DNA of 64,000 nt, from contig OZ253449.1 of NCBI GenBank assembly GCA_965261345.1, positions 224,001-288,000 of the forward strand. The letters are read 5' to 3'. This DNA is from Chloroflexota bacterium (GTDB lineage Bacteria; Chloroflexota; UBA11872; VXNJ01). Below the pieces are notes generated by a model. It worked only from the letters and a program-made list of their open reading frames with translations. It was not told where the DNA came from and did no database searches. Below, one piece after another: positions 40,949 through 49,364 of this stretch; position 1 is the stretch's first letter, and every line of letters starts with the position of its first letter. A program made the position numbers and the translations under genes.

Positions 40949-42182
40949 CTACCCCGCCGGCAATGCCAGCGGGGACTGCCTCTCTCCCGGAGATGGGGGT
41001 TGGCCGATTAAGGCCATCGAGTGCCTGGACATATAGCGGCGCTCGGATGCGAGCCATTCGTCGTTCTGCTCAATTAGGACCGCTCCGATAAGGCGCAGGA
41101 CCGAGTCATCGTCAGGGAAGAGCTGTACTACCCGGGTGCGGCGCTTTAGCTCGCCCATAACGCGCTCTAGGGGATTGGTGGACCAGATCTTGCGCCAGTG
41201 CGAAGGCGGGAAGGCGGTGTAGGCAGTCAGGGCGATCTCGGAGTCCTCGAGGATCGTGGACAGTTCCGGATACTTGCGCTCTAAGCGATCGGCGAAATCT
41301 CCGAAGGCGTCCATGGCGCTCTGCTTGTCAGCCTGCCCAAACAGCGACGCCAGTCCGGCTGCCACCAGCCCGCGGTCGCCGCTTCTGACCCTTGGCAGAA
41401 GATTGCGCCCAAAGTGTGTCCTGCACGTCTGCCAGGCGGCCTCGGGAATAAGCTTTGTCACCGCGTTGCCGATGGCTTGGTTCCCATCGGAGATCACCAG
41501 CCGCACGCCGGATAGACCGCGCGTTACCAGGGAGGCGATCAAGTCCTCCCAGAAGCCCTGCGCTTCGCTGTGGCCGATTGCAAGCCCCAGCAGCTCGCGA
41601 TGGCCGTTCTCGTTTATGGCCATTGCTATGCCCACCGCCCGCGACCTTACCGCATGCGCGTTTCGGGCTTTTACGTAGGTGGCGTCGAGATAGAGGTACG
41701 GGAAGGTCGTATGCGCGAGATCGCGTTCGCGGAAGGCATTGACCAGCTCGTCGATGCCTTTGCAGATCCTTGACACCTCGGACCTGGAGATCCCGGCGTT
41801 TACTCCCATCGCCTCCACCAGCTTGTCGACCTTGCGGGTGGAGACGCCCTTGCTGTAGGCGGTCATGATGACGCCGTAGAGGGCCTGGTCGATGCGGCGC
41901 CGCCGCTCCAAGAACTCGGGGTAGTAGCTGCCTTGGCGCAGCTTGGGCAGGGCAATCTCGATGTCGCCCGCCCGGGTGGAGAGGGTGCGCTTGCGCGAGC
42001 CATCAAAGCCGATTGCGACGCTCGCCGTTGCGCTCGTGCGGTTTGGCGCCGATGTTTTCGGCCAGGCCGGCGTCAATAAGTTCCTGGTAGGCGTGCCGTA
42101 CGGCGCTGCGGACGAATTCGCTGCTGTCAAACCCTTGCTTGGCGATAAGGGCAAGCAAGGTCTGATAATCAAGTTGGGCCAT
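40949..42182 (-). pseudogene. IS256 transposase, frameshift near 42010
   Basis: Start MAQLDYQ at 42182 is in a different frame from PKLRQGSY, YLYLDATY, LVISDG and STNPLER. Confidence 0.88.
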
Positions 42183-42478
42183 CGATGGTTCCTCGACGAA
42201 GTAAGTGAATTGACTCCGTAGAGGTTTACACGATGGCCCTTTGTCATCGCGTTGGCTTAGTTGATCAAGCGGGTGCTCTTACACCACTCCAGGGGACGTG
42301 ATCGATGATGATTCGGATGAGCTTGAAAGTTCGATCGGGGGCCTGGCCCCGGAGGGATTGCGGTAAGCCGAATGTTCGGCTCGGACAAAGGTCCGGGAAA
42401 CCTGCCCGCCCGGCGACTAGCATAAGTGCGAACTGCTGCAGTAGCTATACCCCAAATAAGCACCAATTCCGGTCCACC

Positions 42479-43945: not shown

Positions 43946-44248
43946 ATGACCGGGACCCTCGACACAATTCGGGCCAAACGAAAAACCGGCTGCGAACCCA
44001 TCCGCCGTCCCGGGAATCGGGGCGATGTCGGAACTCTGCTCGGGTTCTGGCAGTGGGCCGGATCCGACCTTGTCGGCAACACCATGCGGGGCTGGCTTGC
44101 CGAATACCTGGTGGCTCTGGATCTAGGAATCGCCGACGGGGCGCGAACTGAATGGGCCCCACATGACCTGACAATGGCTGACCGTACGCGGGTCGAGGTC
44201 AAGACCTCGGCCTACGTCCAGAGCTGGTCCCAGAAAGGGCATCCCCCC
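43946..44248 (+). pseudogene. PD-(D/E)xK nuclease-like protein, 5' half
   Basis: FWQWAGSDL..RGWLAEYLVA..HDL..RVEVKTSAYVQSW; broken at a C-run by IS110-A. Confidence 0.65.
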
Positions 44249-44264
44249 TGTACCTTGTATGTTC

Positions 44265-44430
44265 CAAATGGGAAGTCCCGGGTGCGGTAGGGCGCCTGTA
44301 CCTTGGTCCATTGAGACCGTTTTAAAGCACGCTCGCCGCACCCGGATCTCCCGGCGCATAGACCCCGAACAATTGCTCGGTGGGCTCTAGACCCCGTATT
44401 CGCAAGGAAGGGCGTAGCGTCGGGAGTAAC
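44265..44430 (+). ncRNA. IS110-B bridge RNA (ends approximate)
   Basis: Two stem/internal-loop modules. Guides CCTGTACCT (44295-44303), TAAAG (44323-44327), ACAATTGCT (44369-44377) and GCAAG (44402-44406) match the target and donor junctions. Confidence 0.85.
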
Positions 44431-44435
44431 TATAG

Positions 44436-47216
<2,781 letters not shown>

Positions 47217-47517
47217 GTAAGCCAAAAAAGGTGGCCCTGACAGCCTGCATGAGAAAGCTGCTGGTGATCCTGAACGCGATGCTGAGGAACGGCGAGTATT
47301 GGCGCGAGGAGTCCGCCTCGGGCTGAACGCCGGGCAGGTCCGATCGCTCTTGCGGGCAAGGTCCCTGGCGAAGCCATGCCCGGGATCGGGCTATTGCGGC
47401 GATTACGCATCCGGTTATCGCCTGTCGATCGGGCTGCGGTCACTATGAACCGCGGTCGGGGCGCTGGATCTATCCTCCCCTTTCTCCTGGACCCCTCTGA
47501 CCCCACCTCTGCCGGAA

Positions 47518-47523
47518 TTGACA
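47518..47523 (+). promoter_or_regulatory. -35 half of the IS110-B circle-junction promoter (-10 TATGTT at 44258-44263)
   Basis: TTGACA, 17-bp spacer across the CT core, then TATGTT once the ends are joined. Confidence 0.8.
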
Positions 47524-47544
47524 ATCAAGACAATTGCTTTAGGT

Positions 47545-47760
47545 AGCTTCATCTGACTAAGCAATTGGGCATGCGCGATGCTCTGCTCAGCCTGGATGAA
47601 GTCAAGGTCAGCGGCCGGGAGTAACCAATCGCCCCTTGTGTCTTTTGAGCACCGTGGGGGGGACCCGTGCCCCGGTGCAGCTGGCCGCGGCAGATGCCCC
47701 GTGGAGAGTTTGCGTCTTAGAACGCCGGTACAGGGATTGGCAGGTGTCGTGGCGGACCTT
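47545..47760 (+). ncRNA. IS110-A bridge RNA (ends approximate)
   Basis: 5' hairpin CTTCATC/GATGAAG. Target guides AATCGCCCC (47627-47635) and G7 (47656-47662). Donor guides GGAGAGTTT (47703-47711) and GGTACAGG (47727-47734). Confidence 0.75.
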
Positions 47761-47803
47761 CAATGCGATCAATACCATCGCGCACCACACATGGGGAAGG
47801 ACC

Positions 47804-49045
47804 GTGAAAGAACACACTTCCTGGTACGCCGGTATCGACTGGGCCATCGCCGAGCACCAGGTCTGCATCATCGACGCTGACGGCAACGAACATGGTCAGC
47901 GTAATTTCCCGCATCGTGGATCCGGATTGGCGGCCATGGCCGCCTGGATCCTGTCCCGCACCGGAACCGACCCCGAAGATATCGCCATCGCCATTGAGGT
48001 GCCGCATGGACCGGTGGTCGAGAGCCTGCTCGATCGCGGGTTTAAAGTGCATGCCATCAACCCCAAGCAACTCGATCGCTTCCGTGATCGCTTCTTCCCA
48101 GCCGGCGCCAAGGACGACCGCCGCGATGCCAGGGTCCTGGCCGATGCCCTGCGCACCGATCCGCAGGTGCTGCGGCAGCTGGCATCGCCAGATCCCTTGA
48201 CCGTGGAGCTAAGAGAGTTCTCACGTTTGGCTGAGGAGCTCACCAAGGAGCGCACCCGCCTTAGCAACCGGGTGCGACAACAACTCTGGCGCTACTATCC
48301 GCAGGTCCTGGAGATCAGCAACAACGTCACCGAGCCATGGATCCTGGATCTGTGGCAGATGGCTCCCACACCGGAGAGGGGGCGGCGATTGAGTCGAGGC
48401 CGGGTAACCCGCTTGCTAAAACGCCATCGCATCCGTCGCATTGATGCGACAGGCGTGCTCTCGATGCTGCGCCAGGAAGCGATAAAGGTGTCTCCGGGCA
48501 CAACCGAGGCTGCCGTCGCGACGATCACCCTGGTCGCCGAACGTCTAAAGCTCATACAGCGTCAACTGCTCGAGGTCAACACCCAGATCGACCGCTTAAC
48601 CGATGCCATCGCCAACGATGCACTGGGTGAGAGCGGGCAGCGCGACGTGGCCATCCTCTCATCTCTTCCCGGAGTCGGAAGGACGGTCCTCGCCACACTG
48701 CTCACCGAGGCGCATGATCCTCTTATGCGGAGAGACTATCGCGCCCTGCGCTCATTATGCGGAGTTGCGCCGATAACCAAGCGATCGGGCAAGAGCATGA
48801 TCGTTGTCCGACGCCATGCCGTCCATCGTCGACTCGCCAATGCCATGTACCACTGGGCCCGGGTGGCGGTTCAGCATGATCCGGTCAGCCGACGCAAATA
48901 CGACGCATTACGCCTTCGAGGCCATCGGCATGCAAGGGCGTTGCGATCGGTAGCTGACCGTTTGTTGGCGGTGGTCTGCGCTATGCTGCGTAACCAGACC
49001 CTTTATCAGCCAGAACTGCTCCGGAGTGATGCCGCAGCGGCTTGA
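47804..49045 (+). CDS. IS110-A recombinase
   Basis: GIDWA, AIEVPHG, KDDRRDA and KRSGK; GGAAGGA before the GTG start. Confidence 0.93.
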   Translation: MKEHTSWYAGIDWAIAEHQVCIIDADGNEHGQRNFPHRGSGLAAMAAWILSRTGTDPEDIAIAIEVPHGPVVESLLDRGFKVHAINPKQLDRFRDRFFPAGAKDDRRDARVLADALRTDPQVLRQLASPDPLTVELREFSRLAEELTKERTRLSNRVRQQLWRYYPQVLEISNNVTEPWILDLWQMAPTPERGRRLSRGRVTRLLKRHRIRRIDATGVLSMLRQEAIKVSPGTTEAAVATITLVAERLKLIQRQLLEVNTQIDRLTDAIANDALGESGQRDVAILSSLPGVGRTVLATLLTEAHDPLMRRDYRALRSLCGVAPITKRSGKSMIVVRRHAVHRRLANAMYHWARVAVQHDPVSRRKYDALRLRGHRHARALRSVADRLLAVVCAMLRNQTLYQPELLRSDAAAA

Positions 49046-49047
49046 CA
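49042..49047 (+). promoter_or_regulatory. -35 half of the IS110-A circle-junction promoter (-10 TACCTT from 44251)
   Basis: TTGACA + 13 nt + CC + TG gives a 17-bp spacer to TACCTT. Confidence 0.72.
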
Positions 49048-49062
49048 AATGGTAGAGAGTCC

Positions 49063-49364
49063 CCCCCTTCTCAATTCGCCCGGCAATTGGGTGGTCCCCC
49101 AAAGGCGGTTTTTCCGCAAATCCGCCGGAAAGGTCTTCTGACGTCTACGTTTTCTGTCTGCACAAGCATCGCGATCAAGCAACCATCTGTCCCCTCGATG
49201 GCGCCCAGTGGAATTTCTTCGTCGTTCCCACCAAAGTGATTGACGCAAGGCTCGGCAACCAGAAGACCGTCGGAATATCTACGCTTTGCGACGTCGGGGC
49301 GAGGCAGTCACCTTTTGGCGAAATCAAAAAAACGATTTCCACCGTCCTGGGCGGGATGGGTTAG
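49063..49364 (+). pseudogene. PD-(D/E)xK nuclease-like protein, 3' half
   Basis: Open frame from 49068: FSIRPAIGW..SSDVYVFCL..PLDGAQWNFFVVPT..QKTVGI..*; absent from the ORF track. Confidence 0.65.

Follow-up and report, generated by a model that had tools for sequence, protein, structure and literature searches.

When one RNA-guided mobile element is found inside the very tip of another, it is natural to ask whether that position was chosen, and what becomes of the element that was hit. The locus described here raises both questions. It lies in a window of 64,000 nucleotides (G000:C1:224001-288000), which is the whole stretch of DNA that we analysed, and it contains two IS110 elements, designated A and B, of which B interrupts A seven bases from its left end. 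The original prediction, made from the letters of this DNA, was that B keeps the donor end and -10 box of A and redirects them to its own RNA. We have compared the locus with the other copies of A and B in the same genome, with sister genomes, and with published IS110 systems.

Results

Nested Architecture of the Locus

The window contains a nest of four levels: a host gene is split by A within a poly-C tract, A is split by B, and the recombinase gene of B is split by a group II intron (Table 1). The copies of A and B present here are called A5 and B5. The right end of A runs as ...GGTAGAGAGT to 49060 and is followed by its core CC at 49061-49062. No match to the host gene was found in five genomes of the genus, and pre-insertion sites were not recovered, the left-flank match of a second copy, A6, stopping short of the insertion point; the assignment of A's core therefore rests on a comparison of flanks. 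With CC as the core, the pre-insertion tract of the host gene (44243-44248 plus 49061-49067) comes to 11 C, so that the halves of the gene do not share a reading frame, as they would with 9 or 12 C, and either the poly-C tract has slipped or the gene was already off frame. An IS256-type (Mutator family) transposase gene is located 1.7 kb upstream of the host gene (40949-42247, minus strand), and the other neighbors of the locus are ordinary metabolic and transport genes.

Table 1. Positions of the nested features, numbered from the first letter of the window
Feature	Position	Strand	Remark
Host gene, 5' part	43946-44246	+	No Pfam family; ends in a poly-C tract, the target of A
A core dinucleotide CC, left copy	44247-44248	+	Flanks of A-family copies compared
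A left-end stub TGTACCT, 7 bp	44249-44255	+	Intact ends in relatives; last two bases, CT, are B's target core
A -10-like hexamer TACCTT	44251-44256	+	Sixth base is B's first base
IS110 element B (copy B5), TGTATGTT...ACAATTGCT	44256-47538	+	3283 bp with intron, 1352 bp without
B -10 TATGTT	44258-44263	+	17 nt from B -35 in predicted B circle
B bridge-RNA target-binding stem-loop	44277-44345	+	Fold; guide/flank covariation
B left target guide CCTGTACCT	44295-44303	+	In target-binding stem-loop
B inner hairpin of target-binding stem-loop	44304-44319	+	
B right target guide TTTTAAAG	44320-44327	+	In target-binding stem-loop
B bridge-RNA donor-binding stem-loop	44348-44425	+	Fold
B left donor guide ACAATTGCT	44369-44377	+	Identical to B right end plus core
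B GCAAG	44402-44406	+	Pairs with CT+TG
B recombinase gene, N-terminal part	44448-45285	+	DEDD_Tnp_IS110 and Transposase_20
Group II intron, 1931 nt	45286-47216	-	Antisense to B recombinase gene; Rfam, RVT_1
Intron RT ORF	45358-47067	-	RVT_1 E=9e-40
B recombinase gene, C-terminal part	47217-47327	+	
B -35 TTGACA in right end	47518-47523	+	
IS110 element A body (copy A5), TTAGGTAGC... to ...GAGAGT plus core CC	47539-49062	+	
A bridge-RNA gene	47546-47800	+	Guides listed separately
A left target guide AATCGCCCC	47627-47635	+	Within bridge-RNA gene
A right target guide GGGGGGG	47656-47662	+	Within bridge-RNA gene
A left donor guide GGAGAGT	47703-47709	+	Within bridge-RNA gene
A right donor guide GGTACAGG	47727-47734	+	Within bridge-RNA gene
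A recombinase gene, 413 aa, intact	47804-49045	+	
A -35 TTGACA	49042-49047	+	Overlaps recombinase stop codon
Host gene, 3' part, and right target (CCCCC)	49063-49364	+	

Ends, Guides, and Cores of the Two Elements

The recombinase of A matches PF01548 (DEDD_Tnp_IS110, E=9e-36) and PF02371 (Transposase_20, E=5e-15), and that of B matches the same two domains (E=7e-24 and E=5e-21, respectively). On the strength of these domains, the RNA encoded at the left end, the match of guides to flanks, and the shared core, we assign both elements to the IS110 group of the IS110 family, with a predicted promoter in the circle. Each element is flanked on either side by an identical dinucleotide core, and the duplication extends no further (CC^A^..CC and CT^B^..CT, where a caret marks a joint). 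A diverged member of the A family has the flanks ..aatCC^TGTACCT and ..AGAAAGTCC^accgaaaa, the right side with its core being ^CCaccgaaaa. In the sister genome G018 there are five copies of A, 1530 bp long and 99% identical, each preceded by ..CC^ and followed by ^CC and a further five or more C; the run of seven G in A's RNA (47656-47662) fits CC+CCCCC. The uninterrupted left end in that genome reads CC^TGTACCTTTAGGTAGC, and the left end of A is given as CCTGTACCTTTAGG.

The donor guide GGTACAGG of A is complementary to CCTGTACC (44247-44254). Three relatives of A with the left end TATACC or CATACC carry the guide GTATAGG, a compensatory change that supports this pairing. The guide segments of A are conserved and covary across nine relatives; folded as a single sequence, its leader does no better than shuffled sequences (z=-0.40). 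When the right end, CC, and the left end are joined, TTGACA (49042) and TACCTT are separated by 17 nt, just as had been proposed, and the junction GAGAGT-CC-TGTACC that had been assumed is backed by the family flanks, the copies in G018, the seven-G guide, and the parallel geometry of B's own junction (TTGACA, 13 nt, CT, TG, TATGTT). TACCTT is nevertheless a weak -10, which matches TATAAT at 3/6 positions and would fall below the scan tool's own threshold, and the promoter at A's circle junction that B is said to disrupt is a predicted, still unproven one. A scan for sigma-70-like promoters found none upstream of either RNA gene in the integrated state. We also considered a hybrid promoter made of B's outward -35 and the TAGGTA of A, and discarded it: its -10 matches at only 2/6 positions by eye, and the scan is empty there.

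Two stem-loops form in the fold of B's leader (z=-2.26), and their internal loops hold the guides. In the first, the internal loop consists of CCUGUACCU (44295-44303), the inner hairpin, and UUUUAAAG. The left target guide CCUGUACCU equals the A core CC, TGTAC, and CT, that is, the core of A and its first seven bases, and the right guide UUUUAAAG pairs with CT+TTAAA-like sequence just inside A. The second stem-loop carries ACAAUUGCU, which is the right end of B with its core CT. A search of Rfam returned no bridge-RNA match; its sole hit was a sub-threshold match to the Xanthomonadaceae sRNA sX15 (44269-44431, minus strand; 32.5 bits, gathering 55, E=0.015), antisense to the bridge-RNA gene of B. 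The sX15 family may derive from an IS110 leader.

What B's Insertion Leaves of A

The insertion point that had been proposed for B, TACCT^T, is proved by the A-family left ends examined in three sister genomes (G018, G013, and G017), 12/12 of which read CC^TGTACCTTT... without B. B's first base is a T, and it supplies the sixth base of a regenerated TACCTT. A restored T alone would be a 1-in-4 chance event; the insertion site is not a matter of chance, since B occupies one and the same position in 5/5 A-family left ends of this genome. CC-TGTACC, which A's donor guide was said to read, is indeed intact, and its pairing with GGTACAGG covaries in relatives. The displacement of A's RNA gene, originally put at about 3.3 kb, measures 3283 bp, of which 1931 bp are the group II intron inside B, absent from that account. 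The bridge RNA of B starts ~20 nt behind the -10-like hexamer, again as anticipated.

B is thus inserted between base 7 and base 8 of A, at a CT core, and the guide-RNA and recombinase genes of A have been pushed 1352 bp from the junction promoter (3283 bp in the B5 copy). Judged from the nucleotide order, those genes are cut off from the predicted promoter of the circle junction, where the guide RNA of B now stands instead. The donor half-site of A and five-sixths of its -10 are kept because B's guide covers those bases and B cuts just 3' of them. Their survival is accordingly a geometric by-product of the position of B's guide, for which selection is not needed. The anatomy of two IS110 elements set out in the original prediction stands; what it overlooked is that the placement of B is dictated by its own guide and is not a sparing of A, and, in its functional detail for B5, that the recombinase gene of this copy is broken by the intron.

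Occupancy of A-Family Ends

The genome (G000) has seven full-length copies of B. B is found in the context ..CC(T)[G/A]TACCT^B^TT.. at all five A-family left ends, those of A5, A6, and three others; a sixth A-family member has no left end and stands outside this count. The left target guide matches the flank at 9/9 positions at four of these sites and at 8/9 at one. The occupied ends span four diverged A subfamilies, the three further hosts being only 65-81% identical to A5/A6, and B1-B4 and B6 differ from one another in 4-13 of ~1352 columns. The hosts have diverged by 19-35%, and these B copies differ by at most 1%. There must have been at least four independent insertions of B. The 9-mer CCTGTACCT occurs 15 more times in the genome, with no match on the right side and with no B inserted. 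What looked like a free target at C1:494064 (CCCCTGTACCTTAGTT) turned out to be an ordinary gene upstream region and not an A end. The A-family element that hosts B2, A' (G000:C1:22058-25115), has ~50 nt between its left end and its recombinase start, with no guide-RNA region, and ~1.8 kb of other DNA separates the parts of its recombinase gene.

Only this genome, out of 98 from the class, has a contiguous B^A junction. A 17-mer across the A^B junction has 23 hits in unrelated taxa, about what chance would give by a rough estimate, and 27-mer and 28-mer junction patterns gave 0 hits in a set of metagenome contigs from which this genome's own records may be missing. In the sequencing runs, a contig of run X5, from another study, crosses the B^A junction (47246-48175), and a contig of run X10 has A with an intact left end, so that both occupied and free states of A exist in other samples.

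Guide Change among Relatives of B

The only close relative of B in G018 (L044, 87% identical) has the guides ATTCCCCT / TAATGAAG and is located at TCCCCT^TCATTGG. Throughout the B lineage, the guide matches the left flank plus CT, as is the case for CCTGTACCT, ATTCCCCT, AACCCCGCT (at ..CCCGCT^), AATCCCCT (at AATCCCCT^), and TTTTGACCT (at TTGACCT^). Between B and its nearest sibling, 7/17 guide positions differ, compared to 25/211 of the other leader columns (Fisher p=0.004). Given the guide CCTGTACCT, the occupancy of 5/5 ends, and the presence of other guides in the closest relatives, we consider it probable (roughly 80%) that B is a retargeted IS110 element, its target loop now directed at the ~14 bp that open the left end of another IS110 lineage, A. 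The guide of B would pair with the left tip of A, recombination at the CT core would place B between A's bases 7 and 8, and B would have entered each A-type end independently.

Other members of the lineage show how variable the relation between guide and location can be. Two B copies, B1 (C1:14041-15392) and B7 (C1:875274-876606), have the A-directed guide and are found at ..TCCCCT^TCATTGG and ..TCCCCT^TTCGTTGG, respectively. Their sites lie inside an inverted-repeat unit and fit the sibling guide (that of the fragment at C1:142528 and of L044 in G018); with the A-directed guide, the TCCCCT^T.. sites match at 4/9 left positions, counted from the flanks. Hence the location of an element is not always set by the guide that it now carries, and either guide RNAs act in trans on the circles of other copies or the leader was converted later. 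A more distant B-like element at C1 ~148475 (minus strand) carries the guide AATCCCCT, and in front of it lies an incomplete duplicate of its left end, broken off precisely where the guide-coding segment ends. It seems that the element entered a sister copy in the DNA that codes for the guide, since this DNA mimics its target. L045 (G017:C1:16207-17524), a 1318-bp relative of B that is 78% identical and carries the guides TTTTGACCT / TAAGTCAG, lies in inverted orientation within an A-type element, 76 nt from the end of that element, and divides its guide-RNA gene in two. Members of the B lineage therefore do not as a rule spare the element that they enter.

Intron and Mosaic Patch in B5

The intron scores 164.5 bits with RF02005 (gathering 49), and its domain V/VI scores 36.6 bits with RF00029, below the gathering threshold of 40. 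Nine further full-length or near-full-length copies have defined ends. One copy, 96% identical (G000:C1:819310-821234), occupies the equivalent codon in a B-like element of only 73% identity. Two copies in the sense orientation (C1:44535 and C1:110171) lie between the two C of the core at A-family right ends (..GTAGAGAGTC^intron^CACCGA..), which makes the A-family right ends, too, a recurrent target of another mobile element. The recombinase frame of B5 ends inside the intron, and five other copies of B have an intact frame of 315 aa. Five substitutions within ~30 bp of the intron site are seen in B5 and in no other B copy, and might be the result of co-conversion during homing.

B5 also contains a mosaic patch (~44486-44820, 333 columns), situated in the N-terminal part of its recombinase gene, where it departs from all other B copies at ~65 positions. 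The closest match of the patch (90%) is the 73%-identical B-like lineage, and no identical donor was found in the genome; in run X1 its depth is ~2, versus ~53 for the rest of B. The 458-bp segment after the patch is identical to B2. When the patch and the intron-adjacent changes are set aside, three sites distinguish B5 from B6 and two distinguish it from B2, and B5 and B6 have no unique derived base in common. The distance between B5 and B6 (3 in ~1000, with the patch and the intron-adjacent changes excluded) is not significantly greater than that between A5 and A6 (2 in 1524 bases, 99.87% identical), and a sister relation of B5 and B6 is not demonstrable. From the lack of shared derived bases and the mosaicism, we infer that B entered A5 and A6 independently.

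Fate of the A+B Composite

It is very improbable that a single ancestral fusion of B and A gave rise to all of today's pairs. The constant position and orientation of B would agree with such an origin, but the divergence of the A-type hosts (19-35%) against the near identity of B1-B4 and B6 (1% or less), the B-free A-family ends in three sister genomes, and the occurrence of B-type elements alone lead us to reject it. A more serious proposal, and the one made originally, is that B rides on A: A's machinery would excise or copy A+B as a whole, and A's junction promoter would transcribe the bridge RNA and recombinase of B. We regard this as rather unlikely. Its structural part stands, including the intact half-site (CC+TGTACC), right end, and 17-nt spacing of -35 and -10, the regenerated hexamer, and the RNA of B ~20 nt behind it; movement of the composite is unsupported by the comparison of B5 and B6. 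A5 and A6 both have intact recombinase (413 aa) and guide-RNA genes, and there is no terminator-like site on the plus strand between the recombinase stop of B and the RNA gene of A. Published IS621 work has found that 22 bp suffice for a donor when the RNA is supplied in trans, recognition by the donor arm is all that excision requires according to a preprint, cargo-bearing IS110s below ~20 kb are described as moving as whole units in another (10.64898/2026.08.14.744561), and ISPpu9 co-circularizes a passenger RNA gene (PMC12288879). The search for A+B at a different locus, suggested as a check, did turn up a second composite (C1:813500-816386), with an A that is 99.87% identical, but this has no power to decide the question: B inserts on its own into every A-type left end of the genome, and two occupied copies of A need no composite move.

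Several further observations speak against such riding. B5 and B6 share no unique derived base, B5 has a patch and an intron that are absent from B6, and its post-patch segment follows B2; no B^A composite occurs in 97 other genomes of the class; L045 lies within an A-type guide-RNA gene; and no B-free A is left in this genome to supply a junction-driven enzyme. Probes for the A+B and B circle junctions, built from the coordinates, had 0 matches in the assembly, and contigs of four runs contained five kinds of joints, none of them 49062-44249 or 47538-44256; contigs cannot show rare circles, and this last result weighs neither for nor against riding. One may instead suppose that B purely disables A, whose guide RNA and recombinase would be separated from the junction promoter and which would be immobilized, the composites being dead ends; this is conceivable, if doubtful. 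G000 has only two intact copies of A, both occupied, along with decayed relatives (A' is missing its RNA region, an intron has entered the right-end core of A'' and A4, and only a fragment remains of A'''), G018, which lacks an A-directed guide, has five free copies that are 99% identical, and no promoter-like site precedes the RNA gene of A. However, the comparison is based on one genome pair, read-through from B is possible, and A5 and A6 are still intact and nearly identical, so that any inactivation would be recent. The probability that remains beside riding and disabling falls to mixed or neutral outcomes. We think it unlikely that B is a dedicated hyperparasite and a hitchhiker at once, reading the bases of A's donor guide while A still copies A+B and the junction promoter of A fires B first; if true, this would be a case of an RNA-guided element using another RNA-guided element as target, vehicle, and switch. 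For B as a retargeted IS110, the reading that we prefer, the main effect on A would be the loss of junction-promoter drive, with occasional mobilization of the whole composite by A's enzyme possible and secondary.

Discussion

Programmable recombinases are being developed from bridge-RNA elements, whose natural choices of target have yet to be fully catalogued. The B lineage provides a natural retargeting of a bridge RNA between close relatives, in which the guide positions account for a disproportionate share of the changes. In one genome every available copy of A was taken by B, and in the sister genomes none was, which makes for a clean natural system in which to ask how much of its left end an IS110 needs for mobility, how important the junction promoter is, and how mobile elements compete with or exploit one another through RNA guides. 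The presence of B1 and B7 in the target sites of a sibling may hint that guide RNAs are shared in trans between copies in nature. A search of the literature on nested and hyperparasitic IS110 elements, in which preprint supplements and most subscription journals were outside the search, found no description of an IS110 guided to the donor end of another.

IS621 and the IS110 group have been described by Durrant et al. 2024 (PMC11208160) and Hiraizumi et al. 2024 and 2026 (PMC13626964). The two elements resemble IS621 in having a DEDD recombinase, a left-end guide RNA with a target loop and a donor loop, and a core on both sides (PMC11208160), and B has the core CT. A right-end -35 and a left-end -10, predicted here to form a promoter only in the circle, are another likeness, the hexamers and their 17-nt spacing being present in the sequence. 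They differ from IS621 in that the core of A is CC and A targets poly-C runs, and in that the target of B is the donor end of another IS110, not a host repeat. Expanded, cargo-bearing IS110 loci are reported to grow by insertion into occupied loci and to move as units, without target immunity (Hu et al. 2026, 10.64898/2026.08.14.744561); in the main text of that study the cargo lies downstream of the recombinase and in tandem modules, with no second IS110 at the left tip. The enzyme of ISPpu9 circularizes the ssr9 module as a passenger, together with the element or apart from it, a form of selfish hitchhiking (Pares-Guillen et al. 2025, PMC12288879). In contrast to ssr9, a small RNA gene without a recombinase, B brings both a guide and an enzyme as a complete IS110, and it selected its insertion site itself.

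That elements of the IS110 superfamily can specialize on the ends of other transposons is already known. IS4321/IS5075 reportedly insert into Tn21-family repeats, and are thus members of the same superfamily specialized on the ends of another transposon. They belong to the IS1111 group, not the IS110 group, and their host element is a Tn3-family transposon, which entails no shared recombination chemistry or junction promoter. Another case involves IS1384, a member of an unrelated IS family with inverted repeats that are read by a protein. The IS110-family element IS1383, like B, takes an end of a different insertion sequence as its specific target, and reportedly inserts into IS1384 at these repeats (Muller, Lauf and Hermann 2001, as cited in PMC11208160). 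The target of B, in contrast, lies in another bridge-RNA element and comprises its RNA-read donor half-site, its -10, and its transcription start region. This choice of target is what is new here, and it was apparently reached by a guide change that can still be seen between close relatives.
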